From IMG/VR virus record IMGVR_UViG_3300010362_000017: a stretch of DNA of 64,000 bases. One strand, given 5' to 3'. The stretch's first letter is position 1, and every line of letters starts with the position of its first letter. Source of the stretch: an uncultured virus (IMG/VR IMGVR_UViG_3300010362_000017). Taxonomy: Duplodnaviria > Heunggongvirae > Uroviricota > Caudoviricetes. A model generated the notes under the pieces. It ran no database searches, had not been told where the DNA came from, and saw only the letters and a program-made list of their open reading frames with translations. Shown one piece after another: positions 8,316-63,863 of the stretch. The translations under genes and the position numbers were made by a program.

Positions 8316-9227
8316 ATGCCGATTGATATGGCATCGATCAAGAACGAGCTTTTCCCGGGCCTCGCGGCCGTGGAAGGTCGTTACAAGAAGATCGAGACCA
8401 AGTGGTCCCGCCTCTTCGAGAAGCGCAGTTCGAAGATGGCACAGGAACGCCGCACGCAGATGGCGTACCTGCCGCTCGCGCGTGAGAAGGCGGAAGCCCA
8501 GAGCACCTACTTCGATGAGCGCGCGGGTGAACGCTGGTTGTACAACGCAGAGATGAAGGAATTGAGCCTTGGGTATATTATTACCAGGAAGGCCGTGGAA
8601 GACAACCAGTATAAGGCAGAGTTCAATCCTTCCAACCTCGGGTTGCAAGACGTCTTTGCGGTGACCAAGGAAATTTACGCCGCGAACATCTTCAACGTCG
8701 GCACCGTCTTCGACCAGCAGGTCGGCGGTGACCAGAAAGCGCTGTTCGCGACGGACCACCCGATCGACATCGGCGTGGTCGGCAACCGTCCCGGCACCGA
8801 CATCGATCTGAACGAGTCCTCGCTGTTGACCGCCATGACGGTCATCCGCAACAACTGGGTTGATGAGCGCAACATCAAAATCAGCGCCCGCGCGGAGCTT
8901 GTCCTTGTCCCCGCGGCTCTGGAGCAAGTCATCGTGCGGCTGCTACGTAGCGAGCTTCGCCCGGGAACCAACGACAACGACATCAACGCCATCCAGCACG
9001 TCGGTGGCGGGTTGCGCGACTACATCGTCGATGAGTTCCTGACCTCACCGTATGCCTGGTTCATCAAAACCGACAAACGTGGCCTGATCTATTACGATCG
9101 CGTTCCGTTCGAAATGGACATGTACGTCGATTTTGACACAGATAATTTGAAGGTGAAGGGGAGGGAGCGGTACTGTTTCAGCTACTTCGACTGGAGGTCC
9201 GTGTACGGGAGCTTCCCCACGTCGTAA
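8316..9227 (+). CDS. Major capsid protein (HK97 fold)
   Basis: 303 aa. ELFPGL, LGYIITRKAVEDN, GGDQKALFATDHP, LVLVPAALE, AWFIKTD, KGRERYCF; RBS GAGGAG. Confidence 0.9.
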   Translation: MPIDMASIKNELFPGLAAVEGRYKKIETKWSRLFEKRSSKMAQERRTQMAYLPLAREKAEAQSTYFDERAGERWLYNAEMKELSLGYIITRKAVEDNQYKAEFNPSNLGLQDVFAVTKEIYAANIFNVGTVFDQQVGGDQKALFATDHPIDIGVVGNRPGTDIDLNESSLLTAMTVIRNNWVDERNIKISARAELVLVPAALEQVIVRLLRSELRPGTNDNDINAIQHVGGGLRDYIVDEFLTSPYAWFIKTDKRGLIYYDRVPFEMDMYVDFDTDNLKVKGRERYCFSYFDWRSVYGSFPTS

Positions 9228-30515: not shown

Positions 30516-31180
30516 CGAAGGTGTTGTACGATCTCGAAAGCGGCGTGCCTGGCGTGCGCCTCGCCACCAAGGACGATGAGTGGCAGATATTCGGACTGCT
30601 GATGCTGCTCCATGCCGAGAACGGCATGTTCCGGCTCAATCGCGACAAGGTGCTTGCCGGTATTCAATGGGCGACCGAGCGCAAGGGCGGCATCATCTTC
30701 TGCATCGACGACAACAAGGGCGTGGTTGCGACGCTGGGGATGTGCATCACGTCGGACTGGTACAGCGACGATGAGTATCTGCTGGAGCGCTGGAACTACG
30801 TTCACCCCGACTATCGCCGCAGTGACTACTCGCGCAAGCTGATCGACCAGGCCAAGTGGACGCACGAATGGTTCAAGCGCACGGGCGTGCTGCTGCCGCT
30901 GCAGGTCGGGATTAACTCCTTCGACCGCACGGAAGCGAAGGTGCGGCTGTACGCGCGGCAGATGGCGTGCATCGGTGCGTTCTTCATGTACGGCTTGCCG
31001 CCGTTGCAGGCGGATAAGATGGCCGACGAAATGCGCCGTATCGACGAGTTGAACCAAAAGAACAAGGGACTACCCATCGGCGAGCAAAAAGTGCGGCCTG
31101 TGGTCGAGACTATTCTCAAGGTAGGCAAGCGGAAACCGGAGCCGCTGTACTTCGCACGGGAGAGCGAAGATGTGCAATAA
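30512..31180 (+). CDS. GNAT-fold acyltransferase-like protein
   Basis: VRLATKDD start, WYSDDEYLLERWNYVHPDYRRS (motif A-like), AKVRLY; lies between ejection genes. Confidence 0.7.
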   Translation: MTKVLYDLESGVPGVRLATKDDEWQIFGLLMLLHAENGMFRLNRDKVLAGIQWATERKGGIIFCIDDNKGVVATLGMCITSDWYSDDEYLLERWNYVHPDYRRSDYSRKLIDQAKWTHEWFKRTGVLLPLQVGINSFDRTEAKVRLYARQMACIGAFFMYGLPPLQADKMADEMRRIDELNQKNKGLPIGEQKVRPVVETILKVGKRKPEPLYFARESEDVQ

Positions 31181-33743
31181 GAGCGGAAGCCCTCCGGTCC
31201 CCAATCAAACCTCGACGGCTTATCAATCCGCGACTGCGCCCAGCGCATTCGTCCAGCCCTACTACCAGGGCTTCCTGCAGAACGCGCAGCAACTCTCACA
31301 GACGCCGTTCAACACGGCGATGCTGGGGCAAGTTGCGCCGATGAATGCCTCGCAGACTGCGGCCGGCACGCAGCTGTTCAACCTCGGCATGAATCTGGGG
31401 AGCTTCGATCCCAACGCCGTCAGCACCATCCAGTCGCCGTTCATGGAAGACGTGGTGAAGGCGACACAGGATTGGTTCAACAACCAGAATCGTATCCAGG
31501 GCAACGACCTTATCGGTCAGGCCATCCGTTCCGGCAACGCCTTTGGCGGCGATCGCGCCGGCATTGCGGAGGCACAGCTGGCGGGGCAGCAGCAACTCGC
31601 GCAGGCCCCGGTCATCGCCGGCTTGCGCCAGGCCGGCTACACGCAAGCCCTCGACGAATACAATCGCCTCAAGCAGATGGGCATCACCGGCGCCGGTACT
31701 GCGCTGGGCTGGGGCACGCTCGCGCAGCAGCAGCAACAGCGCGAGATGGACGTCGCGCAACAGAACGCCATGATGGCGTCAGCCTATCCGTTCCAGACTG
31801 CAAACTGGTACGGCTCGACTCTGGGCGGTATTGGCCCGCTGCTGGGCTCGTTCGCTCAGGGTTACACCACGCCGCCGCAACCTAACGAACTGACACAAGG
31901 TCTCGGCATTGCATCCTCGCTGATCGGTCTTGGTACGTCATTGTTCGGTAAGGACGGCGGTGTGGTGGGCCGTAAGGTCGGCGGTTTGGTGCCGATCGTG
32001 GTCGCGCGTCGCAACGGCGGCCTGGTGCCGGTCGCATTCAGGGACGGCGGAGGCGTCATCCATCTTGTTCCACCGTCGCGCCCGCCGCGCCGGCAGACCG
32101 GCGGCCTGGTGCCGGTGTGGGGGATGTATCGTGGCGGCCTGATCGATCGCCGCATCCCGCGGCACGGTCTCGGCCGGCGTCTGCCACCAAAGCGCCAGTA
32201 CGGTGGCGGTATCAGCCTGAGCACCGGCGGCGATGATGATGACACAGGGCCTACCACGCACAGCTTCAATCTCGACCAGCTGAATATCCCGACATTCAAG
32301 GGGCCGCCCGACGCCGGCTCTTGGATACAGCAGCGCATGCGGGACACCGCACGCGAGCAAAAGAAACCGGCCAACCCGACCGCGGACGCGATCGATGCCA
32401 TCAGCGGCATTGCCAAGAAGGCGGCGCCGATGCTGGCGCTGATGGCGCTCAAGAGCGGCGGCAGAGTGGGATATTACGCCGATGGCGATGACGTCGACGA
32501 CGACGACAACGAGGCCGTGCTGGATACTGGTGCCGATGATGTTTCCAGGGAGGACATGCCGCGGCTGATCCAGACAGCGTATGCCGCGCCTGGTGCGGCA
32601 GCGTATCGTCCTTCACAGCCGCAGGTGCCGGTGGTTGCTCCCGCCCCGGCCGCTGATACAGCTGCGCCAGCTGCGCCAGCAGCAGCTGCGCCTGCCGCCA
32701 CTACAGCAGCAGTTAATCCCGAGTCGTTCTGGAACCAGCCACCACCTCCCGGTGGACGCACCTTCTATGGCGGGAGGACAGCCGACACTGGAGGTGGCCG
32801 CGCTGGTGAGACGACGGTCATCCCCGGTCTCGGCCCGCCACCGCGCACCTTCGCCCAGCGCTGGGCAACCAATCCGTTCACGCAAGCTGGCGCAGCGATG
32901 CTGATGAGCCGCAGCCCGTATTTCGGGCCGGGCGTGGGCGCGGGCATGCTGGCGGCATCGGGCTCGATCGAGCAGCAACGCAAGGAAGACCTGCTCGAAA
33001 ACAAACCGCAGATGATCGACGACGGCCAGTCGATCAAATATCGCGTCGGCAACAGGATAATCGACTCCGGCATCACCTCCCCGAAGGCGCGGGCGGCCCA
33101 GGAAAGGCGAGACGTTCTTGAGTATCAGGAGGGAAAGCGCACGGAGCGGCAGCAGATACGTTCCGGCGGCAGGCCGTCGGGCGCACAGGCGGAGGCAACC
33201 AATCGCTTCCACATGCGCGCGCTGCAAAAGCAGCTGGAGGCAATCAAGGATGATCCCGATCGCGTGGCGAAGGCGCGGCAGATCATTCAGGACTACAACA
33301 ACCAATGGGGCACGAACTTCAACGTGCCGGCTGCGCCTGCGCCCGAAACGGAAGGGGCGGCACCAAGCGGTGAGGGCTTCTGGAACTGGCTGTGGCGAGG
33401 CATCACCGGCGCCAGCGCACCGGCGAAGCCGGCCGCTGCGGCTGCAGCGGAGTCAGAGCCGGACGACGAAGGGCAGGCAGCGCCAGCTGCCCCGAGGGGC
33501 GGCCGCACGGGCGCGGCAGCTATCCCGACAGCGCCGGCAGCGCCTGCCGCAGAGGCGCCGCAGGACCTAGCAACCGCCCTCGATAAGAAGACAATCACCA
33601 AGGAACAAGCGATCTCGCAAGCTCGCGCCGCCGCCAAGCGCGATCCCAGCAAGATCGATATGATCACCAAGCGACTACGCGATGCTGGGATAAAGAACTT
33701 TGGCGACCTGCTGCAGGGCTCACCAGCGACACCAGCACGGTAG
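31170..33743 (+). CDS. Internal virion / DNA ejection (pilot-like) protein
   Basis: MCNKSGS start, SPFMEDVV, NAFGGDRAGIAEA, LRQAGYTQA, Q-rich; eight xxxGG motifs. Confidence 0.7.
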   Translation: MCNKSGSPPVPNQTSTAYQSATAPSAFVQPYYQGFLQNAQQLSQTPFNTAMLGQVAPMNASQTAAGTQLFNLGMNLGSFDPNAVSTIQSPFMEDVVKATQDWFNNQNRIQGNDLIGQAIRSGNAFGGDRAGIAEAQLAGQQQLAQAPVIAGLRQAGYTQALDEYNRLKQMGITGAGTALGWGTLAQQQQQREMDVAQQNAMMASAYPFQTANWYGSTLGGIGPLLGSFAQGYTTPPQPNELTQGLGIASSLIGLGTSLFGKDGGVVGRKVGGLVPIVVARRNGGLVPVAFRDGGGVIHLVPPSRPPRRQTGGLVPVWGMYRGGLIDRRIPRHGLGRRLPPKRQYGGGISLSTGGDDDDTGPTTHSFNLDQLNIPTFKGPPDAGSWIQQRMRDTAREQKKPANPTADAIDAISGIAKKAAPMLALMALKSGGRVGYYADGDDVDDDDNEAVLDTGADDVSREDMPRLIQTAYAAPGAAAYRPSQPQVPVVAPAPAADTAAPAAPAAAAPAATTAAVNPESFWNQPPPPGGRTFYGGRTADTGGGRAGETTVIPGLGPPPRTFAQRWATNPFTQAGAAMLMSRSPYFGPGVGAGMLAASGSIEQQRKEDLLENKPQMIDDGQSIKYRVGNRIIDSGITSPKARAAQERRDVLEYQEGKRTERQQIRSGGRPSGAQAEATNRFHMRALQKQLEAIKDDPDRVAKARQIIQDYNNQWGTNFNVPAAPAPETEGAAPSGEGFWNWLWRGITGASAPAKPAAAAAAESEPDDEGQAAPAAPRGGRTGAAAIPTAPAAPAAEAPQDLATALDKKTITKEQAISQARAAAKRDPSKIDMITKRLRDAGIKNFGDLLQGSPATPAR

Positions 33744-33746
33744 GGC

Positions 33747-36700
33747 GTGATGGCTGAGGACTTTTTCGCGGACATCACAGAGCCGGAACCGGAGCGGACG
33801 GAAGGCCGCCCCGACATTCTGGCGGTGCCCGAGCGCCTGCGCCCGCCCGTGCGCTTCGTGCCGCAAGGTGTGCCGCGCGAGCCGCCGCCGCCGCCGCCGC
33901 CGCCGGCCCCCGCGCAGGAGCCGTTTTACGATCCGATGACCGGCGCGCCGGTGCGAGTGCCGGGCCAGGTCGTGCAAGAGCCGCCTGGGAAGCCGGGGTT
34001 CGTGCAAGGTCTAGGGGAAGGGCTAGGCAGCGCGGTCAGCGGCGCCGCCGAGACCGGCGAAGCAATGGTCAATCGGCTGCGCGGGCGCCCGCTCGCTGAG
34101 CCGACAGAGAGTTTTACGACAGCGCCGGAGGTGGCAGAGCTACCGCCGAGCCAGGGCATGTTTCATCCGTATTGGTGGGGACACATGCTGGGGCACGGCG
34201 CGCCAGCAATGGCCGCTTACGCCCTACCTGGCGGTGCGATCGGCGCCGGCTTGGCGACCTTCATCACCGAATACGGCCCGTCGTTTCGGGCGAATGTCGA
34301 AGCCGGCGTACCGGAAGATCAGGCGCTTCGTACCGCTCTCCAAAGCTCCGGCGTGAATGCGGCTGCGACCGCCGCCATGTTCGGCCTGCCGCTCAGAGTT
34401 TTTACGCAACTGATTGGACAACCGACCGTCGGCGGTGCCGCACAAATCCTGCAGAACTACATTGCCGGTTTGCCTCCAGAGGACGCCTTTAGGGGCGTGG
34501 GAGAGGCGATGCTGGCAGGTCTGTTCGCGGCTGCTCCCGTAGTCGCCGGCAAGGGCATCGCCAGAGTGTACCGGCGAGTGAGAGGCAAGGGCGCCGAGCC
34601 GAAGGTCGAGGGTGAACCAGAGGCCCCACCGGCAGAGCCCGAGGCCCCATCGGCAGAGCCGGCAGCTGAGGTGCCAGCAAAGACGCCAGCTGCCAAGCCG
34701 GCAGAGGAAGCGCCACCGACAGCACCGACAGCACCGACAATATCCGAGCCATCCGCGCCGGCACGGGCGCCGACGGACGCCGATCTCTTTGACTGGATGG
34801 TTCGTACCGGCGGAGAGGGCGAGCCGCCGACGGCCGCCCCCGTGCAGGTCGCTGCGGCTGCGCCTATCCGCGTTGCCCCTCCTCGAGTCGAGCCCCGTGT
34901 CGAGCCGCCGCGGCCGCCCCCGGCAGAGCCGCCTCGCGCGCGGGAGCCGGTCCCGGAGGCCCGGCCGGAGGAGCGCGCGCCAGAGCGTCCAGCAGAGCCG
35001 CCTCGCGCGCAGGAGCCAGATTACTTCTCCGACATCGGCGAGCCGCCGGATTGGGTGACCGAGCGGCTTCCTGAGCCACGGGGAGAACGGCCCCCAGAGG
35101 AACAGCTGCCTTACGATGAGGCCGCAGCGTGGGCGCGCAGGCCGGAAGCCCCGGAACCGCCTCGCGCGCGGGAGCCGGCGCCGAAGCCAGAAGAGTATCG
35201 ACCGCGGGGCGCCCTCCCGCCTGCGGAGGAGATCGGCCAATCCGTTCAGCCGATCCCCGGCTTTGGCGGAATCTTCAAGGTGGGGGACGAGTTCGTTCTT
35301 CGTGACCAGCTGGGCAAGGAGCTTGGGCGTTACGCTACCGCTGACGAAGCTCGCAATGCTGCCCGTGCTCCTCCCGCGGAGGAGCCGGTTGCGCCGCCGC
35401 AGTTCCCGGAGGCGCCCGCCCCCGCACGTGTGCGGGGTGCAATACCCGGGCTGGCTCCCCCGAAGGGTGGCAGGGCGCAGTCGTTGATGGATTTCATCCG
35501 CCAGCACGGCATCGATCCGAACGATCCGATGATCGGCGACGTGCAAGCGATGAACCTGCCCCGCGGCTACATCCGCAAGGGTGGTAAGCCGCTCGATACG
35601 CTGTTGGAAGCGGCGGTTGAGGCCCGCTACATCGATGATCCCGGTTTCAGGGGCGGCGGCGAGCGCACGTCAACTGTCGATGACCTGCTGGCCGCGATGG
35701 ATAAGGACCATCGGGCGCGCAAGGCCAAGAACCCGGAGCAGCAGGTCTGGCCGCAGGGCGAAGAGGTCATGCGCCGCCCGGGTGCCGAGGAGCGCCAGCG
35801 GTCACGCGATCTCGACACGACGGCCCGGAGCATCGAGGAAGCATTCGAGAAAGAGGGCATCAGCAGGAACGAGCTTGATCCAAACACTTTGCGGAACGCA
35901 GCCGAGGCAATGTATCGTCGTGAGCCTGGCTACGAGACACCGCTGGAAGCCTACGATCGAGCCGCCGCATGGCGAGAGGAGGTCTACGGTGAGAAGCGCA
36001 CAGGAGTGCGCGGAGGCCGCGAGAAAGTTTATCCAGGCGGCGAACCGCGAGCAGAACCCCGAGGTGAAGAAGCGCCTGCTGGGCCTCGCCCACGCGAACA
36101 AGGGCCTGGTAAGGCTCGCGAACTTGCTCGCGAAGAAGTCCGCCCCGAAGCCCTAGAGTTTGCACACGATGTCGCCCGGCGCCAGGTCGGACGAGAGATC
36201 GATTTTCTGGACTCGATGCCGCTCAGCCGCGTGCTGGCGGGGCTTGATTTCTCTCACCTCTCCGGTGCTGCCCTCAAGACTGCCGAGTGGGTTCGCAACC
36301 GGCTCACCCGCCTGGTCGGTGACACGCCGGTCCACTTTGTTGCCGAGCGGGATATCCACGAGTTTGCCGGTCATACTGATCCCAAGGCGAGGGTGAATGG
36401 CTTCTGGGCACAGGAGCTTAACACACGGACCAGCAAGCCGGACAGCTTCATTTTTTTGAACGCGGACATGATGTACGCCGGCAACAAGGCCGAGGGCGTC
36501 CATACCGTCCTGCACGAAGCCACCCACGCCGCCACCAATGCCGCCATCGACCGCAACGCCGCGGTGCGGCGCTCGATCCAGGCGATGATGACCGCTCTCA
36601 AGGGAAAGATAACGAAGGGCGGCAAGCCGATCTACGCGATGACGGACGTACACGAGTTCATCGCAGAGGTCTTTAGCAATCCGCAGCTGCAGGAGGCGAT

Positions 36701-39700
36701 GCACGGGGTTCAGACGCCATCGTCGATACGGGCCGCGCTGGGCTGGGCGTCCGGCAAGGGCCTCTCGATGTGGGATGCGATGGTGGAGACGGTGCGGCGT
36801 GCGATCGGTCTGCCGCCCAGGCTGGCCGGCGAGTTGGACAAGATCATGCAGCCGACGCTGTTGGAGACGGCGCTGACGGTCGGCGAGACCGCGCTGCAGG
36901 CACGCGAGAAGATGGAGGCTCCGGCGCGCCGGGCGATGGCGCGAGAGCGTGAGGAGCCCCGGTTCGAGCCCGGCGCCGAGGGCAAGCCGCAGCAGGTCAT
37001 CCCTGGCGCCGAGCGGCGTGTCGGCGAAGCGCTGCAGCGCAAGGCCGAGGCCCCGCTCAAGCCCAAGGTCGAACAGAAAGGGATGGACTTTGGCCTGTTC
37101 GGCGATGAGCGGAACCAGGGTGACCTGTTCGGCGGGCGCGATGTCAAAGGCAAGGCGCTGATCGTTGACGCCGCCAACGAAGCGCTGACCGACAAGCTGC
37201 GGATGTCGAACCATCCCACGCTGTCGAAGATCGCTGGCTACTTGCCGCGCTACAAGCACTACGGCCCCACCGAGGTGCGGGTGAGGACGCAGGACTACTT
37301 CCTGCGCTGGCGCCGCGCCGCCGAGCAATGGATGCGGGACAATGCGGGAAAGATTCTGCCCGACTGGGCGAACCCGTATCAGGCGGAAGCGCTCTCCCAC
37401 GGCAAGGCCAAGGCCCGGTTGGAAGAGGTGATGGCAAAGTTCAAAGAGCCGTTGGCCAAAGCGGTTAACAAACTTGGCAAGCGGGCCTACGAAGAGGCCG
37501 GCGAGTTCTTTCAGGCCAAGCACGCCATCGAGCGCAACAAGGAACTGCGCAAGATCAATCCGACTTTCACCGATCCCGCCGGCATGTCCGACGCCCAGGC
37601 GCAGGCCATCTTGCAGCGCGTGGCTCGCGATCCACGTCGAGCCTTGTTCGAGGATGCCTACAAGAAGATGCGCTCGCTGATCGACGCCACGCTCGATATG
37701 CAGGTGCGCGATGGGCTGATGTCCCAGCAGATGGCTAACGCCTGGCGCCAGCGCTGGCCGGACTACGTGCCCATGCGCCACACCGAGGTCGGGGACATGA
37801 TCGGCATCGGCCGCGGCCTGGATATCCGTGGCAAGGAAAGCCAGCGCGCGTTCGGCCGGCTGTCGCGCGCAGACAACCCTATTCAATATGCGCTGATGCA
37901 AATGGACCGTGCCATCATCCGCGGTGCCAAGAACGAAGTCGGTGAGGCGGTGAGCAACTTCGTCGAGCGGGCGATCACCTCTGATCCAGCGAACAGGGAC
38001 CTATTCAGCACGACCGAGAAGCCTACCAAGCAGCAGATCAATCCGAAGACCGGGCTGGTCGAGACCGTCGTCGATCCCAACTGGCGCAACGATCCCAACA
38101 TCTTCATCTGGAAAAAATACGGTGCGGAGAAGCACGTCTACTTCAAGGGCGAGTATGGCGGCCAGCTGATCCGCGCGCTCAAGAACATGCAGCAGCAGCA
38201 GGCCGGCGAGTTCGTGCGCGCAATGAGCGCGGCGACGCGGTTCCTGGCAAGGCTCAACACTTCGCTCAACCCCGAGTTCATCATCTCCAACTTCGTCCGT
38301 GACGCCGGCGAGGCGTTCATCAACCTGCCGAAGGACCAGCAGGCGGCGCTGGTCAAATCCTTCCGCAAGAATCTGATCCCGGCGTTGTCGGGCGCGTGGA
38401 AGGGGCAGGACAAGGTGACGCTGCGCGGCGGCAGGTGGGCGCAATGGTATCGTGAGTTCGAGGCAGAGGGCGGCAAGATCGGCTACTACGGGGCCGAGAC
38501 TGCGGAGGAGCATAGCGCCAACTTCCAGAAGATGCTCAAGGACCTGCAGCGCGGCCCGCTCTCTGTGAAAAAGATGGGCAAGACCGTTATCGATGGCATC
38601 GATAAGGTCAACACCACGATAGAGAATGCCACGCGCCTGGCGGTCTACGTCGCGGCGCGCGAGAACGGTATCTCCAAGGCGAAGGCCGCCTTCATGGCGC
38701 GCGAAGCGACGGTCAACTTCAACCGCCGCGGCGAGAGCCGGGCGCTATCCTCGGCCTACATGTTCGCCAACGCCGGGCTGCAGGGCACGGTGCGTGGCGT
38801 ACAGGCGCTCAAAAGTTCCCCTCGCGCGCGGAAAGCGGCGGTGGCGTTGGCGGCCAGCGGCGCTGCGCTCACCACGTACAACATCTTTGCCGGCGGCACG
38901 GACAAGGACGGTCGCTCGTTCTATTCCAAGATACCGCCGTGGGAACGGCAGCTGAACTTCATCTTCATGAACCCCACCGGCAACGGGCAGTACATCAAGA
39001 TACCCAAGCCGTTTTTCTACGGCATGTTCTTTGGCATCGGCGATCACCTGGCGAGCTTCGCGTTTGACAGGAAGACTGCTGCCGACACGGCCAAGGGCAT
39101 ATTCTGGGATGCAGCCAAGGCGGTCGATCCGCTGGGGCAGGACGAAGGCTGGGCGCATTGGGTTCCCACCATTGCCAAGCCGCTCGCGCAGCTGGCGCTC
39201 AACGAGAACCCGTGGGGCAACCCGATCTACCCGGAGGAAAAGGACTACAGCAAGTACAAGTCGAAGGCGGAGGGGTTCCACTTTCGCAGCACATCAGAGC
39301 CAGCCAAGTGGGCCGCAAGGATGCTCAATCAGCTGGGCGGTGGCGACAAGAACGTGCCGGGGAGCATCAACGTGGGCGTCGGCACGATATCCACAGACAT
39401 CCACCCCGAGGTCATCGACTATCTGACGGGCTTCGTGACCGGCGGTCTCGGCCGTTTCGGCATGAACATGTACACGTGGGGAACGCGGCTCTACAACGGC
39501 CAGGAATGGATGCCGGAGAAGACGCCGTTCGTCCGCAGGTTCTACGGCGAGGCCCCGCAGCCGGGAGCCGAGCGCGCGCTCTATGCCGAGCAGCGCAAGG
39601 AGGCCGAGGCAGCGAAGCAGCGCAAGACGCCCGGCCCGGAGATGAGATCGGCGCCGGCGTTCCAGGAGGCGCAGAAAGCCAATAAAAAGCTGTACCAAGA

Positions 39701-39881
39701 GATGGATAAGGTGCAGAAAAACGATAGGCTCTCGGAAGCTGAGAAGGACAAGCGCGTCAAGGCGCTGGAGCAGAAGCAGCTGGACAACATGCTCAAGGCA
39801 CGACGGACGTTGGAGCGCGCCCGTGCTGCGCAAGAGAAGCGCAAGCCGACGTTTGCCGTCGGCGGTCTGGTTCGGATTTGA
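33747..39881 (+). CDS. Large polyvalent ejection protein with zincin-like HExxH domain and C-terminal LPD38-like domain
   Basis: 2044 aa. VLHEATHAAT...HEFIAEVFSNP; NPEFIISNFVRD; TVNFNRRG; YIKIPKPF...PTIAKPLAQLALNEN.WG.PIYP. Confidence 0.75.
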   Translation: MMAEDFFADITEPEPERTEGRPDILAVPERLRPPVRFVPQGVPREPPPPPPPPAPAQEPFYDPMTGAPVRVPGQVVQEPPGKPGFVQGLGEGLGSAVSGAAETGEAMVNRLRGRPLAEPTESFTTAPEVAELPPSQGMFHPYWWGHMLGHGAPAMAAYALPGGAIGAGLATFITEYGPSFRANVEAGVPEDQALRTALQSSGVNAAATAAMFGLPLRVFTQLIGQPTVGGAAQILQNYIAGLPPEDAFRGVGEAMLAGLFAAAPVVAGKGIARVYRRVRGKGAEPKVEGEPEAPPAEPEAPSAEPAAEVPAKTPAAKPAEEAPPTAPTAPTISEPSAPARAPTDADLFDWMVRTGGEGEPPTAAPVQVAAAAPIRVAPPRVEPRVEPPRPPPAEPPRAREPVPEARPEERAPERPAEPPRAQEPDYFSDIGEPPDWVTERLPEPRGERPPEEQLPYDEAAAWARRPEAPEPPRAREPAPKPEEYRPRGALPPAEEIGQSVQPIPGFGGIFKVGDEFVLRDQLGKELGRYATADEARNAARAPPAEEPVAPPQFPEAPAPARVRGAIPGLAPPKGGRAQSLMDFIRQHGIDPNDPMIGDVQAMNLPRGYIRKGGKPLDTLLEAAVEARYIDDPGFRGGGERTSTVDDLLAAMDKDHRARKAKNPEQQVWPQGEEVMRRPGAEERQRSRDLDTTARSIEEAFEKEGISRNELDPNTLRNAAEAMYRREPGYETPLEAYDRAAAWREEVYGEKRTGVRGGREKVYPGGEPRAEPRGEEAPAGPRPREQGPGKARELAREEVRPEALEFAHDVARRQVGREIDFLDSMPLSRVLAGLDFSHLSGAALKTAEWVRNRLTRLVGDTPVHFVAERDIHEFAGHTDPKARVNGFWAQELNTRTSKPDSFIFLNADMMYAGNKAEGVHTVLHEATHAATNAAIDRNAAVRRSIQAMMTALKGKITKGGKPIYAMTDVHEFIAEVFSNPQLQEAMHGVQTPSSIRAALGWASGKGLSMWDAMVETVRRAIGLPPRLAGELDKIMQPTLLETALTVGETALQAREKMEAPARRAMAREREEPRFEPGAEGKPQQVIPGAERRVGEALQRKAEAPLKPKVEQKGMDFGLFGDERNQGDLFGGRDVKGKALIVDAANEALTDKLRMSNHPTLSKIAGYLPRYKHYGPTEVRVRTQDYFLRWRRAAEQWMRDNAGKILPDWANPYQAEALSHGKAKARLEEVMAKFKEPLAKAVNKLGKRAYEEAGEFFQAKHAIERNKELRKINPTFTDPAGMSDAQAQAILQRVARDPRRALFEDAYKKMRSLIDATLDMQVRDGLMSQQMANAWRQRWPDYVPMRHTEVGDMIGIGRGLDIRGKESQRAFGRLSRADNPIQYALMQMDRAIIRGAKNEVGEAVSNFVERAITSDPANRDLFSTTEKPTKQQINPKTGLVETVVDPNWRNDPNIFIWKKYGAEKHVYFKGEYGGQLIRALKNMQQQQAGEFVRAMSAATRFLARLNTSLNPEFIISNFVRDAGEAFINLPKDQQAALVKSFRKNLIPALSGAWKGQDKVTLRGGRWAQWYREFEAEGGKIGYYGAETAEEHSANFQKMLKDLQRGPLSVKKMGKTVIDGIDKVNTTIENATRLAVYVAARENGISKAKAAFMAREATVNFNRRGESRALSSAYMFANAGLQGTVRGVQALKSSPRARKAAVALAASGAALTTYNIFAGGTDKDGRSFYSKIPPWERQLNFIFMNPTGNGQYIKIPKPFFYGMFFGIGDHLASFAFDRKTAADTAKGIFWDAAKAVDPLGQDEGWAHWVPTIAKPLAQLALNENPWGNPIYPEEKDYSKYKSKAEGFHFRSTSEPAKWAARMLNQLGGGDKNVPGSINVGVGTISTDIHPEVIDYLTGFVTGGLGRFGMNMYTWGTRLYNGQEWMPEKTPFVRRFYGEAPQPGAERALYAEQRKEAEAAKQRKTPGPEMRSAPAFQEAQKANKKLYQEMDKVQKNDRLSEAEKDKRVKALEQKQLDNMLKARRTLERARAAQEKRKPTFAVGGLVRI

Positions 39882-51541: not shown

Positions 51542-52069
51542 ATGCCAACAGGCGGCGACGGCTCGGTCATCCTGGAGCAAGCCTATGCGCTCAGTAAGAT
51601 GCTCAACAACAAAAGCTGGCACGGGTTGTTGCGCAGCGGCATTACTCCATCGGATATCGACTTGCCGTACATCCCGGTGGTGTTCGGCAGCTTTGCACGT
51701 ACCATCCTCTGTGATTTGTCGAACAGCTACAGACAGTGGTCCGAGGCGCCGACCGGCCAGCATCGGCTCTATCGAGAGTTGACAACATCGGCGCCGCACA
51801 TTGCCGTGCTTTGTCACCACAACGTCACCCCGGAGATGGGCCGCAAGATCGACACGCTGTACGATATCGACTCGTTTCAAGTGATGCTGGAGGATTTTGG
51901 TTTCGTGTACTCGAAGCTATTCGAGGCCGACGACTGGCAACCTTTCGTCGAGCGCTGGGTGAACGATCCGCATGGACCGCAGTTCATACGTCGCCGGTTG
52001 CTCGGCAGCTGGGCCAAGCAGAACAGCCCAACAACTCCGGCCTCATTGCAGACGGCCGTTGCAAAGTGA
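51542..52069 (+). CDS. Hypothetical protein
   Basis: RBS GAGGT; 175 aa. Confidence 0.55.
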   Translation: MPTGGDGSVILEQAYALSKMLNNKSWHGLLRSGITPSDIDLPYIPVVFGSFARTILCDLSNSYRQWSEAPTGQHRLYRELTTSAPHIAVLCHHNVTPEMGRKIDTLYDIDSFQVMLEDFGFVYSKLFEADDWQPFVERWVNDPHGPQFIRRRLLGSWAKQNSPTTPASLQTAVAK

Positions 52070-52203
52070 TAGCTATTCGAGTACACTGAACGCGATGGTC
52101 ATGGCACTGTGCCGGTACGCGGCGTGGGGTTGCTGCCCACGGGACATAAGGGAGTAGCTTCCCTCCGGTTTGTCCATGACCATCGCTTTTTTTGGAGGCC
52201 CCG

Positions 52204-52419
52204 ATGGCACACGAGTGGACACAGTATCGGCGCACAACGGTACAGGACATGCGGCCCTACGAGCCGGGCGAAGACGTAACGAACATCGAGATCAATCCGA
52301 TTGACGCTGCGCAGGGCTCGCCGAAAGAGGGTGACATGATCGCCCGCAATCCGAACGATGAGACCAAGGGCTGGCTCGTGAGCCAGCACTATTTCGCGCA
52401 CAACTTTACGCGGGTATGA
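52204..52419 (+). CDS. Small conserved phage protein
   Basis: RBS GGAGG; MRPYEPGED...GSPKEGDMIARNP...WLV...YF..NF. Confidence 0.7.
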   Translation: MAHEWTQYRRTTVQDMRPYEPGEDVTNIEINPIDAAQGSPKEGDMIARNPNDETKGWLVSQHYFAHNFTRV

Positions 52420-52673
52420 CCTACGATCCTAACTACAAGCTCAAGCACAAGCCGCCGCCAGTCCACCGGCTGGCGTACTACAAGCGCCTGCCACCGCCCA
52501 TGGTGGGCGATCCGCGGCCCGATCTCGGCTGGCACTGCAAGAACCCCTGGAAGCAGCGCTGCGAGGCGGTCTACGCCGCGATGATGGCGTTCAAGCACGG
52601 CACCGTGCCGCCCAGGAGCAGGGTTGGTCTCTGGTACTACGACGTGGACACCGACCATTACAGGCAGGCGTGA
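52416..52673 (+). CDS. Hypothetical protein
   Basis: Coupled at both ends. Confidence 0.5.
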   Translation: MTYDPNYKLKHKPPPVHRLAYYKRLPPPMVGDPRPDLGWHCKNPWKQRCEAVYAAMMAFKHGTVPPRSRVGLWYYDVDTDHYRQA

Positions 52674-54196
52674 TGCAAGAGTTGCGACCATACCAGGAGG
52701 AGGCCCTGCAAGCCCTTCGGGAGACCGTGGGGCAGGGCGTTCGCCGGCTGGTAGTCCAGGCCCCGACCGGGAGCGGAAAGACGCTGCTTGCGGCTACGGT
52801 TGTCCAGGCGTGCCTAGCCAAGCGCAATCGAGCGGTTTTCTGCGTGCCCGCCATCCAGCTGGTCGACCAGACCGTGGAAATGTTCTACGCGCAGGGCATC
52901 CGGGGGATTGGCGTTATCCAGGCTAACCACGTCATGACGGATTGGTCCCAGCCGGTCCAGGTCGCCTCCATCCAGACCATCCGCAGCCGCCGCGTCTACC
53001 CGGACGCCAAGGTCGTGATCATCGATGAGGTGCACCAGCTACATAAGGCCCACGTGAAATGGCTGCACCATCCCGATTGGGAGAACGTGCCGTTCATCGG
53101 CCTGTCCGCCACGCCCTGGACGACCGGGCTGGGGCGGTACTTCGACTCGCTCTTGGTTATGTCGACCACCGCGGACCTGATCGAGCAGGGCTATCTCAGC
53201 AAGTTCAAGGTGTTCGCGTCGGACCACCCGGACTTGTCGCACGTCAAGACCGTGGCCGGCGACTACCACGAAGGCCAGCTTTCCAGGGTGATGCAGCAAA
53301 GCCCGCTGGTCGCCAACGTCGTGGAAACCTGGCGGTCGAAGTGGAACAAGGACAAGACATTCCTGTTCGCGGTCGACTGCGCCCACGCCCAGATGCTCCA
53401 GGCGCGCTTTCGCGATGCCGGGATTAGCTGCGGCTACCAGGACGCCAACACCTCGCTGGCTGATCGGGCGGCGCTCAAGCGGGCGTTCCACAACGGCGAG
53501 GTGAGGATCATCTCCAACGTCGGCACGTTGACGGTGGGCGTCGACTACGATGTGCGTTGCCTGATCCTGGCACGGCCGACCAAATCGGAAATGCTGTACG
53601 TGCAGATCATCGGGCGGGCGTTGCGCACCGCCGAGGGCAAAGACCACGCGCTGATCCTCGATCACACCGACACCACTAGTCGGTTGGGATTTGTCACCGA
53701 TATCCATCACGAGCACCTGTCGCAGGGCAAGCTCGACTCTACCCAGAAGCACGTGCCCCGTCCGGTACTGCCCAAGCCGTGTCCCAAGTGCACGGCGCTG
53801 ATGCCGGCCGGCGTGAAGGTGTGTCCGGAGTGCGGGTTCGAGCGCAAGGCGCCGGAGAGCAAGATCATCGAGCGCGAGGGCCGCTTGGTCGAGTGGGACT
53901 ACCAGTTCCGCAAGCCCAAGTACCCCAAGGCGATAGACGAGCCGATAATCTACACCTACGAAGAGAAGGCCCGGTTCTACGCCCAGCTGCGCGGCTACGG
54001 TATTGCCCGCAACTTCAAGCCGGGCTGGGCCAAGCTCAAATACCGGGAGAAGTTCAATGGCGTCTGGCCGGAGTGGGCCTGGGAGCGGCACCATCCCTTG
54101 CCGCCCGGCCCGGAGGTCATGATGTTCATCAAATCCCGGTTCATCGCGTGGGCCAATGATCCGAGAAACCCCAACTACCGACCGCGCTCTGCGTGA
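52670..54196 (+). CDS. SF2 DExH helicase (YejH/RadD-like) with C-terminal Zn ribbon
   Basis: LRPYQ, APTGSGKT, IIDEVH, LSATP, QIIGRALR, CPKC...CPEC. Confidence 0.9.
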   Translation: MMQELRPYQEEALQALRETVGQGVRRLVVQAPTGSGKTLLAATVVQACLAKRNRAVFCVPAIQLVDQTVEMFYAQGIRGIGVIQANHVMTDWSQPVQVASIQTIRSRRVYPDAKVVIIDEVHQLHKAHVKWLHHPDWENVPFIGLSATPWTTGLGRYFDSLLVMSTTADLIEQGYLSKFKVFASDHPDLSHVKTVAGDYHEGQLSRVMQQSPLVANVVETWRSKWNKDKTFLFAVDCAHAQMLQARFRDAGISCGYQDANTSLADRAALKRAFHNGEVRIISNVGTLTVGVDYDVRCLILARPTKSEMLYVQIIGRALRTAEGKDHALILDHTDTTSRLGFVTDIHHEHLSQGKLDSTQKHVPRPVLPKPCPKCTALMPAGVKVCPECGFERKAPESKIIEREGRLVEWDYQFRKPKYPKAIDEPIIYTYEEKARFYAQLRGYGIARNFKPGWAKLKYREKFNGVWPEWAWERHHPLPPGPEVMMFIKSRFIAWANDPRNPNYRPRSA

Positions 54197-54422
54197 CGTG
54201 GTGCGCCGCGCGATAGACGACAATCAGTACAAGGCGGAGTTTACGCCCTGGTGCAACACGTTCATGTGCAACAAGTGCTACGGCGAGATCGTCAGCAAGC
54301 AAGATGACAAGACCTACCGCGCGCTGACAGAGCCGCCGCCGCGCGAGCGCAAGCTAGACCTGGGCGAGCCTCGCCCGGTCGAGGACGTGCAACTTGCCGC
54401 CCGCAAGATCGAGCTTGATTGA
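54156..54422 (+). CDS. Small protein carrying an MCP-like peptide (RRAIDDNQYKAEF.P); start 54156 or GTG 54198
   Basis: 8-residue identity with MCP D96-F103. Confidence 0.6.
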   Translation: MIRETPTTDRALRDVVRRAIDDNQYKAEFTPWCNTFMCNKCYGEIVSKQDDKTYRALTEPPPRERKLDLGEPRPVEDVQLAARKIELD

Positions 54423-54678
54423 CTTTGAGCGCCTGGCGCTCGGGCTGATCGTCCACGGCCCGACCGCTGCGACCATCGCCACGGTGCGGCCGTTGGCGTA
54501 TTCGCCGCTGTGGCTGGAGACCAGGAACTTATTGCGCGAGCACGGATTTACCGAGGCAGAGATTGCTCACTTGATGAATAAGCACCCGGCCGGTTGTCCG
54601 TGCTGGGAGTGCGTCATCGCGCTGAACCGCGCCGCGCGCCGCAGCTACTACCGTAGGAAACGGTCCACAGCAAAGTGA
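54415..54678 (+). CDS. Hypothetical protein with HPAGCPCWEC motif
   Basis: Overlaps the upstream stop; H/C cluster. Confidence 0.45.
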   Translation: MIDFERLALGLIVHGPTAATIATVRPLAYSPLWLETRNLLREHGFTEAEIAHLMNKHPAGCPCWECVIALNRAARRSYYRRKRSTAK

Positions 54679-54782
54679 GTCATCCGCCCGACTCGCCTCT
54701 TTAGTTTGGATTGCGACTCGCAGCGTTGCGCTATACCTATGTGGAACTCCCGTGCGGGGAGTGTGTAGGAACGGAGAGGGCC

Positions 54783-55082
54783 ATGCGATCCCGTCTCGCT
54801 GGGAAGGCGAGCCTATGCCGTGAGCGCGCGCGGTTGTGTAGCGCGCTGGCCCGCCATCGTTACTGCGCTGAGGCTAAGCGCAGCGAGTATGAGGCGATGG
54901 CTGCGCACTGGCTGGCGCTCGCCGAACATTTCAAGCTGGCCGAACAAGTGAGCGGGTTCCTGGAGTGGAATGCGCGACGGCTTGAGCCGCCGTCGGCTTT
55001 CGAGGAGGAAACGCCATGCAAAACGTCGGTCTTATCCTACTGTGCTTCGCCTTCGTCTTTGCGGTCATCGCGGCGTGCATAA
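54783..55082 (+). CDS. Small helical protein
   Basis: RBS GGAGAGGG; CRERA..C..LA...MA..W..LA pattern. Confidence 0.5.
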   Translation: MRSRLAGKASLCRERARLCSALARHRYCAEAKRSEYEAMAAHWLALAEHFKLAEQVSGFLEWNARRLEPPSAFEEETPCKTSVLSYCASPSSLRSSRRA

Positions 55083-55177
55083 TGTCGCAAGCCGGCCGCT
55101 TCCACTTGGGCTGGGCGGCGGTGGCGTGCTGGATTGCCGCCGAACTGATCGGAGGATTGGGACGTGCCTTCCACTAA
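55016..55177 (+). CDS. 53-aa two-TM membrane protein absent from the ORF track (MQNVGLILLCFAFVFAVIAA...)
   Basis: RBS GAGGAGG; two hydrophobic helices. Confidence 0.65.
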   Translation: MQNVGLILLCFAFVFAVIAACIMSQAGRFHLGWAAVACWIAAELIGGLGRAFH

Positions 55178-55379
55178 GCTGCCGCGGCTCCGGTTCAAAC
55201 CGGACATGCCGGCGATCTCTTGGGGGCGGGCCGATAGCCCGCCTCGTTTGCTATGCTCGGTCTGCCACGGCAAGCTCCCGGAGGTGGCGCTCAGGCTGTG
55301 GCGCGGCGACGGCACGTCAGCGGCCTTGTGCGACGAGTGCGTGGAGAAATGGATCGGGCCGGTTACGGTCGAGGCATAG
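55164..55379 (+). CDS. Zn-finger protein
   Basis: CSVC...CDEC; RBS GGAGG. Confidence 0.55.
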   Translation: MPSTKLPRLRFKPDMPAISWGRADSPPRLLCSVCHGKLPEVALRLWRGDGTSAALCDECVEKWIGPVTVEA

Positions 55380-55406
55380 AAAAAGGGCCGCTCTTGCGAG
55401 CGGCCC
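55380..55406 (-). terminator. Rho-independent terminator at the convergence of two operons
   Basis: On - strand: GGGCCGCTC-GCAA-GAGCGGCCC-TTTTT. Confidence 0.85.
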
Positions 55407-55444
55407 AGAGTGCCCAAACGAAGGAGTATTCACGCCAGCGCAGG

Positions 55445-55903
55445 CTACTTGCCGGCGCGGATAGCGTCAATGGCGGCCTTGCCCGTCAGCGGCCACTTGC
55501 GAGTTTTTCCCCGCAGATTTGCCTCGCGCTTCTCGCGCTCCACGGCCCGGCGCTCGGCCTTCTTCTCTTTGGTGCGGGGATCGGGTAGCGTCTGTAGCTG
55601 GCGGTTTCGCTTCAGATTCTCCGGGATGTCGAGGCCGTCATCTTCTCGTGGTGGTACTTGTGCCGGGGCTGCTTCCGTTCCAGGGGCGGCCCCGGCTTTT
55701 TCGTCGAACCCGCCGGTGACGTTGCGGGTGTCGTCATAGATGGGCTTGTGCTCGGCCATAAGCCGCTCGCGTAGCTCCTCCCGGTCGAGGCGCTGTCGCT
55801 GTCGCTCCAGCTTGTCGACCGTGTTGAGCGCTCGCTTGAGCCGGGTTCGCCAGCGCTTCAAGTCGGCCTCGCACTTTCTCAGTTTCGCTTCGGTCTTTGT
55901 CAT
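55445..55903 (-). CDS. Basic coiled-coil protein with DDGLDIPENLKR motif
   Basis: RBS GGAG; has its own promoter and terminator. Confidence 0.65.
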   Translation of the reverse strand: MTKTEAKLRKCEADLKRWRTRLKRALNTVDKLERQRQRLDREELRERLMAEHKPIYDDTRNVTGGFDEKAGAAPGTEAAPAQVPPREDDGLDIPENLKRNRQLQTLPDPRTKEKKAERRAVEREKREANLRGKTRKWPLTGKAAIDAIRAGK

Positions 55904-55930
55904 CTCATGACTCCATGTTTCGAGTTGACG

Positions 55931-55969
55931 TTCGCATTATAGCAAATCGAGTTTTCGCACTTTGCGAAC
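55931..55969 (-). promoter_or_regulatory. Extended -10 promoter with TTCGCA repeats
   Basis: - strand TGCTATAAT (55944-55936); TTCGCA at 55931 and 55954, inverted at 55963. Confidence 0.5.
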
Positions 55970-56032
55970 ATCAATGGGTTAGCTCAGGTCTCGGGCCTGA
56001 TTCGCGTTTCCGTTCAACGTAACAAAAAGTGA

Positions 56033-56281
56033 TTAGGTGGATTTTTTGCCGCCTTCGATCACGCGCAGCCTCGGCTCCAGGTCGAGGCCGTAAACGTCGT
56101 AGCGGTGCATCGGCCGTGTCTCGAAGCGGCAGGCGACAACCCCATCACGGATAGACTGCGAGACCGGCACGATGAAGCGATAGGTCAACGTCTCGTCGAT
56201 CTCGCGCTCCATCATGCCGCGCTCGATCTCGTAGCGTAGCTCGCTGAGCAATCGCTCGATGCGCTCCATGCGCAGGTTCAC
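56033..56281 (-). CDS. Hypothetical protein
   Basis: GTGA coupling; ends LRVIEGGK. Confidence 0.55.
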   Translation of the reverse strand: MNLRMERIERLLSELRYEIERGMMEREIDETLTYRFIVPVSQSIRDGVVACRFETRPMHRYDVYGLDLEPRLRVIEGGKKST

Positions 56282-60834: not shown

Positions 60835-62403
60835 CTAGCCTAAGTCGAGCACGCGCCCCGTGGGGCCGGTACGCGCTTCCTGGCTGGTCGCCGGCCGCGC
60901 GCGTTTGCTCCACGCGCGGAGTCGCTGCATCTTCTCCGGCATGGAGTCGACCAGCGGCACAACCTTGCCGGCGGCTGCGATCAGGTCGGCCGGCGTGATC
61001 TCGCGGGCACCATCGGCGAAGGCCGTAAACATGGCCTCGTCAATTAGGCTCGCTACCTCGGCGCCTGTGAACTTGTCGCAATGGCTGGCAATCTCGTCGG
61101 CACCATCGGCGCCGAATAGCTTCACGGGATCACGGCCACGGCTGCGGGTGGTTGCCTCGATGATTTGCGCGCGCTCGATAGGCGTGGGCAAGTCAACGAA
61201 GAACATTTCATCCCAGCGGCCTTTGCGTAGAAGCTCCGGGGGGAGCGCTTCCACATCGTTGGCAGTGGCAAAAATGAACGCCTGATTTGTGCGGTCGTTC
61301 ATCCATGTCAGCATGGCGCCCAAGGCATCGGAAGCCACACCGCCGTCACCCTGCGGCCCGGTGCTGCCGGCGAAAGCCTTGTCCATCTCGTCTATCCAAA
61401 GGACGACGCGCCCCATGGACTCAACGGTACGCTGCGCCTCCCGGATATTGCGCTCGCTCTCGCCTACGTATTTGGAGCGCAACGCGCCCATATCCCAGCG
61501 GATGATTGGGCAACGCCATGCGGTGCCGGTCGCCTTGGCGCTAAAGGTCTTGCCACAGCCACTAACGCCGATGACCAAGACGCCCTTGGGGATTGCCAGG
61601 CCATAGGCTCTGGCCTCCGGGCTATAGGCAATGGTCCGCTGCATGAGCCACCCCTTCATGCTGTCGAGGCCGCCTACGGCGTCGAGGCCGCCAGGCAAAG
61701 GCTCAACCCAAGTAAGGAGTCCGCTGCGGGCGATGACTCGCTTTTTCTCCGCCGCGATCATCTCGGGATCAATGCGACGAGTCTTGACCAATGACGCGGC
61801 GAAAGCGGCCTCGGCCTCCAAGCTATTCAAGCCAATGGCTGCATCTATCGCGATGTCGCGATTGCCGTTCAGGGGCTCCACGCGCTCGCCCCCGTTTTTC
61901 ATGGTGCGGTCGAGTACTTGCCCGATCTCTTCGCGGTCGGGCTTCGGCCAGTCCATCACCACAGCATCGCCACCGCCAAGCTCGGGCGGTACGTTGCCGG
62001 AAGGCGCGAGCACGATGATTGAAACGCCAAGCGGGGGAAGCTCGCGCGCGAGGTTGCGCAACTGCCTCAAAGTCTGAATGCCGATGGGGCCGTCTAACCA
62101 CTTGTGCAGGTCGCGCATAACCCACACGGTGCGGCCGCCGCCTTCCTTGGCCTTGGCGCGAATGAATTTGAGCGCTTCGGTGGCGTCCTGCGTCTCTTGG
62201 CCGGCGACTAGCTTGCCGCTCAAGTCGGTCAGCCCTTGGGCACAGTCCCAGAACATTGGCATATACCCGGCGCTCTCACACGCGCGGGCAAGGTAAAGCT
62301 CGACTCGCACCTCCTCCGGGCTGTTAACCCAAAGGACGGCGTTGCGAGCACGAAGCAATGCGGCCACATCGGCCGCTTGCGTCTGCGATCTGGTAGGGGG
62401 CAT
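60835..62403 (-). CDS. Ycf46-like AAA+ ATPase
   Basis: Walker A GVSGCGKT, Walker B VLWIDEMDK, ATAND...LPPELLRKGRWDEMFFVDLP; degenerate N-terminal AAA domain. Confidence 0.85.
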   Translation of the reverse strand: MPPTRSQTQAADVAALLRARNAVLWVNSPEEVRVELYLARACESAGYMPMFWDCAQGLTDLSGKLVAGQETQDATEALKFIRAKAKEGGGRTVWVMRDLHKWLDGPIGIQTLRQLRNLARELPPLGVSIIVLAPSGNVPPELGGGDAVVMDWPKPDREEIGQVLDRTMKNGGERVEPLNGNRDIAIDAAIGLNSLEAEAAFAASLVKTRRIDPEMIAAEKKRVIARSGLLTWVEPLPGGLDAVGGLDSMKGWLMQRTIAYSPEARAYGLAIPKGVLVIGVSGCGKTFSAKATGTAWRCPIIRWDMGALRSKYVGESERNIREAQRTVESMGRVVLWIDEMDKAFAGSTGPQGDGGVASDALGAMLTWMNDRTNQAFIFATANDVEALPPELLRKGRWDEMFFVDLPTPIERAQIIEATTRSRGRDPVKLFGADGADEIASHCDKFTGAEVASLIDEAMFTAFADGAREITPADLIAAAGKVVPLVDSMPEKMQRLRAWSKRARPATSQEARTGPTGRVLDLG

Positions 62404-62473
62404 CTGTTTAGCTCCTGTGTTGGACTCATCAGGCGCCGCGTCACGGCGCGAGGGGCTTGCGCCCCTTTCGTCC

Positions 62474-62677
62474 TTAGCCTCCCCAGCCATGTTCGCGTTG
62501 CCAAGCAAGCTCGCGAAGCTCAAGCTCGCGCCCCTCGATCACGCGCTCGGCGTTGGGGTTGCCGTGCCGCATGTCCCAGCGGCGAAAGCACGGCCAGCAC
62601 GCAATGAGCCCGGTCGCCTTGGCGCCTCGACACAGCGGGCAAGTGGTGGAAGCTCTGACGCGGGGGTTGTCGCTCAT
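62474..62677 (-). CDS. Zn-finger protein
   Basis: CPLC...CWPC. Confidence 0.55.
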   Translation of the reverse strand: MSDNPRVRASTTCPLCRGAKATGLIACWPCFRRWDMRHGNPNAERVIEGRELELRELAWQREHGWGG

Positions 62678-63207: not shown

Positions 63208-63420
63208 ATGGGCTGGGGCTACGATGATTTGCCGGAAATAGACCTGGGGGCGCAAGCCACCGATGAGGTCAAGCTCGGCCAACGCTACAGCGGCAAGCGG
63301 CACGCTAACACATGGGCCGCAGCGGGCCGGCAAGCGCAAGTCCCCATTTGGTGGCAAGAGGTCAAGCGGGTATGCCGCGAAGCCGGCGAGGCGCTCGAAC
63401 GGTCCCGGGTGACGCTATGA
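63208..63420 (+). CDS. Hypothetical protein
   Basis: 70 aa; its stop overlaps the next ATG. Confidence 0.45.
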   Translation: MGWGYDDLPEIDLGAQATDEVKLGQRYSGKRHANTWAAAGRQAQVPIWWQEVKRVCREAGEALERSRVTL

Positions 63421-63863
63421 CAACGCGCCGCGCCTTCCTGGCCGGCCTCGGTAGCCTCTTGGCCGCCCCAGCCATCGTGCAGTGCTCTAACCTCATGTCG
63501 CTCCGCGGCGTGCCGCTCCAGCTATGGGAGCACCGCGAGGTCGGCATCGGCTACGTCATCACCCGCCAGGCCGTCGAGAGCATGACTCGCGAGGCAAGCG
63601 AGCGCTGGCGTGAGCATCTGCGCACAACCCCGGACCTGACCGCCCATCAGCTATGGGACACGGATATGCTGGAGATCGCCGGCCCGCCTGCCGACGTGTT
63701 CAAAAGCTGGCGCCTCGGCCTCGGCTATGAAGGCCGCTACCCCAAACGCCTAGAACCGCGCCCCGGCCGCCTCTGGGTGCAAGGTGACCGCACAGACCGC
63801 GCCGCGCGCTACTTGCTCGGCCAACAAGCCATACCAGGCGACAAAGCGCGATCTACCAGCTAA
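63417..63863 (+). CDS. Protein with twin-arginine-like N-terminus and an MCP-like peptide
   Basis: MTTRRAFLAGLGSLLAAPAIV; EHREVGIGYVITRQAVE vs MCP EMKELSLGYIITRKAVE. Confidence 0.65.
   Translation: MTTRRAFLAGLGSLLAAPAIVQCSNLMSLRGVPLQLWEHREVGIGYVITRQAVESMTREASERWREHLRTTPDLTAHQLWDTDMLEIAGPPADVFKSWRLGLGYEGRYPKRLEPRPGRLWVQGDRTDRAARYLLGQQAIPGDKARSTS

Follow-up and report, generated by a model that had tools for sequence, protein, structure and literature searches.

The stretch of DNA analysed here (64,000 nucleotides, called the window below) represents most of a soil phage contig and encodes a portal, an adaptor, a capsid protein and very large late genes, together with an ERF protein, a helicase and an AAA ATPase. 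On its plus strand, a superfamily-2 helicase gene (52670-54196) is followed by ORF1 (54156-54422; 88 aa) and by a conserved ORF of 94 aa (54394-54678). ORF1 occupies the gap between its two neighbours and overlaps both of them if the ATG at 54156 is the start. The helicase and the 94-aa ORF are adjacent in five of nine relatives; the slot behind the helicase holds unrelated inserts in two of the nine, and the 94-aa ORF is missing there in two. The earlier note on this DNA had assumed that the frame of ORF1 is translated, and by its codon score the frame does look coding (0.41 bits per codon against -0.44 to -1.0 in the other five frames). In a strain that is 97.5% identical, the frame is intact and differs by two synonymous and two replacement changes in 89 codons. 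Because this strain has CTG in place of the GTG at 54198, the start of ORF1 is placed at either ATG 54156 or GTG 54201. Its codon signature, its fit to the operon and its intact frame all suggest that ORF1 is a genuine gene. Where contigs from three soil runs cover parts of the region, no variant inside ORF1 was seen among the matches listed, and a search for sigma-70 sites in 52000-56200 found none. Close by, eight clustered synonymous changes separate the window from strain L185 at 55106-55147, in a gene for a 53-aa membrane-like protein; we read this stretch as a recombined patch under selection.

Within ORF1, residues 17-31 (54204-54248) copy residues 91-105 of the major capsid protein, residues 37-40 (54264-54275) are the first four residues of an 857-aa protein from the block of very large late genes (31170-33743), which is the source of this module, and a C-terminal module (54312-54419) contains the motif R-K-L-D-L. 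All of these features lie on the plus strand; the four-residue module is placed alike in members of the gene family described below, and the C-terminal module is common to them. Judged only by position, the 857-aa protein is a putative internal virion protein. The 2044-aa protein at 33747-39881 has an LPD38 domain, and its neighbour is a 2704-aa protein of no known family. The AAA ATPase (60835-62523) ends in R-x-L-D-L in several genomes, as do ORF1 and some of the family genes, and a shared C-terminal tag of the three is possible; the general enrichment of this motif at C-termini is weak (19 against 9-16 at inner positions).

The major capsid protein (8316-9227, plus strand; 303 aa; HK97 fold) is identified as such by a match to phrog_371 (E 1.9e-7), by annotated major capsid proteins at the top of 27 matched phage records (best 51.5%) and by a fold search that placed HK97-fold capsids first (best Z 10.6 with a low-confidence model of pLDDT 52.7). 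The model falls below a pLDDT of 50 at residues 64-113, 262-272 and 276-286, and the match to the Mu capsid 9JOD is weak (E 0.31); the accessible text of PMC11915804 gives no domain boundaries. A search of bacterial genomes for relatives of the capsid protein found none. Four capsid segments on the plus strand are of concern here: residues 91-105 (8586-8630), which are copied in ORF1 and hold the family-invariant D96, N97 and Y99, and three that are copied elsewhere in the family and not in ORF1, namely residues 2-16 (8319-8363; in members from relatives), residues 49-61 (8460-8498; in some members) and residues 268-282 (9117-9161; a predicted hairpin, copied in the middle of the folded domain of the family).

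Several other features of the contig deserve mention. A GroES-like co-chaperonin (5349-5840; phrog_3188, E 4.9e-4) lies within the head gene block and is conserved in relatives. Tandem genes at 2-328 and 340-1515 precede the portal and have a common N-terminal domain of 115 residues, which is duplicated in most relatives. Two basic low-complexity proteins (3837-4799 and 9563-10498) flank the head genes, have short repeats in common and are possible DNA-condensing core proteins. A 24-residue module of the gene at 16370-19156 (residues 565-588) is also found in small ORFs of the tail region, at 15 loci.

The capsid copy in ORF1 and its recurrence

The earlier note had described the segment 54204-54248 as a copy of capsid residues 91-105 (8586-8630), and this was borne out: identity extends to 11 of 15 residues and, in the DNA, to 29 of 45 bases, and the core of eight residues (capsid 96-103) is unchanged, with four of its eight codons differing, all synonymously. 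Within the genome, tblastn gave this match E values of 4e-6 (PAM30) and 0.002 (BLOSUM62). The earlier note also stated that the remainder of ORF1 is unrelated to the capsid protein; this is so, with the correction that the remainder is related to other accessory genes. The four-residue module of ORF1 belongs to this remainder; that 4-mer occurs four times in 3.0 million aa, and in two relatives whose homologue of the 857-aa protein has a different start, the family genes carry a close version of their own start.

A chance resemblance to the capsid is practically ruled out. Outside the capsid gene, ungapped 15-mers scored up to 67, whereas 12 codon-shuffled windows peaked at 36-43 and the reversed window at 36. 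A point in favour of chance comes from DNA patterns of the motif, which had no match in viral contigs and matched seven loci in metagenomes (collection of 241 million records); of the six loci examined, two belong to the family and four carry a 10-residue version of the pattern in unrelated proteins. The shuffled-window null, the sliding-profile scan and the recurrence in relatives, for which reversed controls were empty, nevertheless refute this explanation.

A profile of capsid residues 75-110, the check that the earlier note had proposed, found ten further matches, spread over 9 of the 33 related records. The motif was seen to recur in homologues of ORF1 as well as in other small ORFs of the clade, so that a second of the note's refuting conditions, absence of the motif from homologues, did not apply. 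We also ran sliding capsid profiles of 24 residues against 48,466 six-frame ORFs (3.0 million aa, with 72 capsid frames removed). At 16 bits or more, 9-10 ORFs were found for windows 73-104, five for window 1-24 (one of which is a true capsid fragment) and one to three for windows starting at 9-49; windows from 97 onwards gave none, and the reversed control was empty. The copies at this threshold fall in windows 1-72 and 73-112 of the capsid. With the threshold lowered to 14 bits, small ORFs with capsid pieces occur in 9 of 13 long relatives, one of them (G005) doubtful, again with empty reversed controls, and the pieces are mostly residues 2-16, 49-61, 88-103 or 268-282. The closest relative, whose capsid protein is 95% identical, has no such ORF. 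When the same test was applied to 20 other proteins of the window and to the terminase of a relative, no comparable set of copies appeared, and these controls gave only ordinary shared modules, contig-end fragments and low-complexity matches. At the DNA level, eight matches exceeded the best control (29.1 bits), all of them in the capsid register and in small ORFs, seven at codons 79-93 and one at codon 271; there were no out-of-register copies above control scores. As capsid genes, L184, G026:2-58 and the matches of G031 and G032 at codon 281 were left out of the counts.

The second copy that the earlier note had pointed to is real and is weaker than the first: 63537-63578 (plus strand) copies capsid residues 82-95, with 9 of 14 residues identical (E 0.009). 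It lies in an ORF of 148 aa (63417-63863, plus strand) with a twin-arginine-like N-terminus, a pattern that was judged by eye, is also present in relatives and matched no Pfam or NCBIfam model. Such N-termini are combined with capsid pieces in at least four records (the ORF 63417-63863 of the window, L174:5169-5429, L157:8057-8422 and L171:8625-9014), and P0003 has the same kind of N-terminus without a clear capsid piece. The twin-arginine-like ORF L145:3761-4360 (minus strand) has stretches that by eye resemble the head gene 6888-7592 and capsid residues 215-224, a likeness that scores 12-13 bits, or 26.9 bits at the DNA level.

The accessory family and its folded domain

A profile built from the ORFs of six relatives and searched against 1.84 billion entries gave 30 representatives, of which 29 are small proteins of this kind; P0013, a long repeat protein, was removed. 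A second family profile gave 25 matches, 16 of them new. Searches with P0007 and P0008 gave one locus already in the set and none, respectively. The names looked up in 20 clusters offered nothing beyond 'hypothetical protein', and 16 family members had no significant match in Pfam or PHROG. In the resulting set of 46 proteins, capsid residues 88-103 are copied in 45 (twice in 19), residues 2-16 in 31, residues 268-281 in 16 and residues 49-61 in five, counts that lean on the retrieval, as the profiles used already held these pieces; capsid windows away from the favoured pieces give 0-3, and the equally conserved capsid segment 209-224 is copied in none of the 46. By their sequences, the family members are mosaics of short capsid pieces of their own clade and the start of another large late protein. 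In the literature accessible to our search, we could not find a published description of phage genes built from pieces of their own capsid protein, or any other account of this kind of gene.

ORF1 is very probably a member of this family, of the P0042/P0007/L040 type. It aligns with the C-terminal half of P0042 (244 aa) at 38% identity over 72 residues (E 1e-7), and when its tail, which is free of the motif, was compared with 34 family proteins, eight matched at p<=0.02 (two of the eight are near-identical). ORF1 thus has two traits of the family, a copy of residues 88-103 and homology outside the capsid piece, and its four modules stand in frame and in family order. It is a truncated member: the N-terminal domain of the family, which combines residues 2-16, 268-282 and 88-103, is lacking, and only the 88-103 piece is present. 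Its position also differs, as ORF1 lies behind the helicase and the family genes of relatives flank the terminase (directly after the large terminase in five records and in the block before it in four). We regard ORF1 as the C-terminal half of an accessory family gene that has moved to a new place, and as a small gene that the phage can do without. With ORF1 as the query, a protein search gave only ORF1 itself and viral contigs gave only capsid genes; a single near-identical relative, a strain variant, is known, with no separate orthologue otherwise. Neither ORF1 nor the folded domain had a significant match among the families and folds searched, whether to a known anti-defence protein or otherwise, an absence that excludes nothing, and Atlas matches for the two (0.75-0.76) were set aside as too low. 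A second type of ORF (L142:11495-11800; L139:18480-19178, minus strand; P0029) combines capsid pieces with a common alanine-rich hydrophobic tail.

Many family members start with, or consist of, a unit of 70 residues, and the profile of this unit matches the capsid profile at 96.8% (E 2.2e-10). In an ungapped scan, three parts of the unit map to capsid residues 2, 268 and 88 (z 6.6, 5.4 and 7.7), with p<=0.001 against column shuffles for segment bounds that were picked after viewing the alignment. The predicted structure of the domain (pLDDT 91.3) consists of a helix, three strands and two helices; fold searches with it reached a best Z of 5.1 and gave no viral match at E<=0.001. Three distant pieces of the capsid have thus been joined, out of their original order, into one compact domain. 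Taking HK97 topology and the weak alignment with the Mu capsid as guides, we assign the pieces to the N-arm helix, to the P-loop hairpin and to the strand with a short helix that precede the spine helix. We infer that the pieces touch in space; in solved shells, such elements come together at the three-fold contact and the scaffold site (PMC5644958 and PMC12749128, accessible text).

Origin of the cassette and selection

Among the loci fetched, the DNA of the ORF1 motif is most similar to a sibling accessory gene (37 of 45 bases), followed by the capsid genes of relatives (35 of 45) and by the capsid gene of the same genome (29 of 45). The earlier note had argued from the synonymous differences for selection on the peptide or for capture from the capsid gene of a related phage. 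Because the closest DNA is that of a sibling accessory gene and not that of the phage's own capsid gene, direct duplication is the poorer fit and capture from a relative the better one. The synonymous differences lend no support to selection, since they came from a comparison with the phage's own capsid gene, which was probably not the donor. The capsid piece probably reached ORF1 via the accessory family, and the motif cassette seems to have been reshuffled among sibling accessory genes.

The proposed dN/dS check did not favour selection on the motif either: against four siblings, the 15 codons gave dN/dS values of 0.65-1.3 with dS of 0.18-0.55, and there is no purifying signal. The flanks of the motif are far more diverged from the siblings than the motif is. 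For ORF1 as a whole, dN/dS was 0.38-0.56 against four of five siblings (the fifth was saturated), and whole family genes gave 0.33-0.67 in 10 pairs. The invariant capsid residues T90, D96, N97 and Y99 are retained at 70-89% in 27 copies, which fits selection and also recent capture.

Possible functions and known systems

The earlier note had put forward a capsid-mimic decoy, an assembly modulator and an interferer with co-infecting relatives as candidate roles. We favour the reading that the genes of capsid pieces act as mimics competing with new capsid protein for a host sensor, and we would give it somewhat less than an even chance. According to this reading, the pieces would display the most conserved outer-corner surface of the capsid while being unable to build a shell. 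A host factor that binds capsid, most probably an anti-phage sensor, would then be contested between the pieces and freshly synthesised capsid monomers, and its activation would be delayed or blocked. The place of ORF1 in the replication operon would mean that its product is synthesised ahead of the capsid protein. The wider proposal of a renewable self-mimic kit, in which capsid surface pieces are repeatedly recombined into small genes, the permuted domain rebuilds one corner of the capsid subunit and the products serve as decoys for capsid-recognising sensors, is possible and rather doubtful.

The decoy reading draws support from known defences. In the accessible text of the sources, capsid proteins trigger Avs7/8/10, Lit and CapRel (PMC13581612) and appear as defence triggers elsewhere as well (PMC12236752), and the escape mutations of staphylococcal Thoeris fall in the capsid P-loop and E-loop (PMC12578639), the elements to which two of the copied pieces were assigned. 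These systems make the capsid protein a liability; they are host sensors, whereas the ORF1 family consists of phage genes, and a capsid-derived inhibitor of any of them was not found in the accessible parts of the three papers. A precedent, by analogy, is DSAD1, which according to the available text competes with a structural trigger for the sensor DSR2 (PMC11087589). Like DSAD1, ORF1 is a small, patchily distributed phage accessory gene whose product would compete with a structural trigger. However, the target of DSAD1 is known, its trigger is the tail tube and the available text does not describe DSAD1 as a sequence copy of that trigger, whereas in the ORF1 family the copy is plain in the sequence. 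Patchy and fast-changing genes also suit a conflict, and the same few capsid pieces have been chosen selectively and in register. The dN/dS of whole family genes (0.33-0.67 in 10 pairs) and the folding of three distant pieces into one domain count in its favour as well. Against the decoy reading stand the motif without purifying signal relative to siblings (dN/dS 0.65-1.3), the lack of a folded domain in ORF1 with its one near-identical relative, the export-like signals of some members, which would take them out of the cytoplasm, and the location of most family genes in the packaging block, which suits a role in assembly as well. Furthermore, Avs sensors envelop and need the whole capsid fold, and short motifs are what Lit and CapRel recognise (PMC13581612, accessible text); a short piece might therefore go unnoticed, or might itself set off the defence that it was meant to block.

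A less likely contender is a role in assembly. Bound to capsid subunits or to scaffold at the three-fold contact, the pieces would either tune the assembly of their own phage or spoil that of co-infecting relatives or hijacking satellites. The position of family genes directly after the large terminase (five records) or in the block before it (four) suits such a role, and the copies appear to track the sequence of their own clade, as in the G031 copy compared with its capsid and in the four-residue module. In HK97-fold shells, moreover, the N-arm helix binds scaffold and CpmB, and the P-loops and E-loop tips form the three-fold contacts (PMC5644958 and PMC12749128, as far as their accessible text goes). 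A piece nearly identical to the phage's own capsid would nevertheless hardly separate rival from self, ORF1 lies in the replication operon, such genes are absent from 4 of 13 long relatives, and the same piece occurs in unrelated frames, some of them export-like. The SaPI1 protein CpmB, which competes with the scaffold of phage 80alpha, is likewise a small mimic, and in an HK97-fold shell it acts where the N-arm and the three-fold region lie (PMC5644958, accessible text). CpmB, however, is the product of a parasite and imitates the tail of the scaffold, whereas the ORF1 family copies the shell protein and belongs to the phage itself; in the family proteins, the candidate scaffold genes 5865-6869 and 6888-7592 had left no piece that our search found. 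ORF1 and its family would work like DSAD1 or like CpmB, and they belong with either kind only by analogy. Capsid paralogues of the T4 gp24 type derive from the major capsid gene too. Gp24 (PDB 1yue) has a full-length HK97 fold and a conserved structural role, whereas the family has pieces of 15 residues or a permuted domain of 70 residues in dispensable genes. Such a paralogue is ruled out for ORF1, with 15 capsid-like residues in 88 aa, and for the family domain, which is only a helix, three strands and two helices.

That ORF1 is a shuffled remnant, a recombined cassette behind the helicase whose peptide has no function here whatever the full-length family does, seems unlikely. The low dS and the dN/dS near 1 of the motif against siblings, with far higher divergence of the flanks, agree with it, as do the single strain variant in place of a separate orthologue, the unrelated inserts behind the helicase in two of nine relatives and the ERF-family annealing protein encoded in this genome. 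The strong coding signature, the exact operon fit, the four modules, which have stayed in frame and follow the order seen in the family, and the dN/dS of the whole gene (0.38-0.56 against four siblings) speak against a remnant, and so do the absence of the equally conserved segment 209-224 from all 46 proteins and the lack of out-of-register DNA copies above control scores. It is more improbable still that the pieces are docking tags, which would attach small proteins to the procapsid or have them packaged. The fusion of the same piece to several unrelated sequences and the module that repeats the first residues of the putative internal virion protein would suit a tag; however, ORF1 has no recognisable cargo domain and no pieces of the candidate scaffold genes turned up in the family. 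Loading tags copy scaffold or cargo and are not known to copy the shell.

The folded domain carries a meaning that stands independently of function: a confidently folding domain made from three distant pieces of one parent shows with rare clarity how recombination can give birth to a domain. Capsid proteins trigger several bacterial immune systems and yet cannot mutate freely, and since it is precisely the invariant residues of the capsid that this family copies, it points to the surface under pressure. Its members are small, expressible baits for finding a binding partner, and if the decoy kit is true, these proteins could be used as bait to find immune sensors that recognise the capsid.
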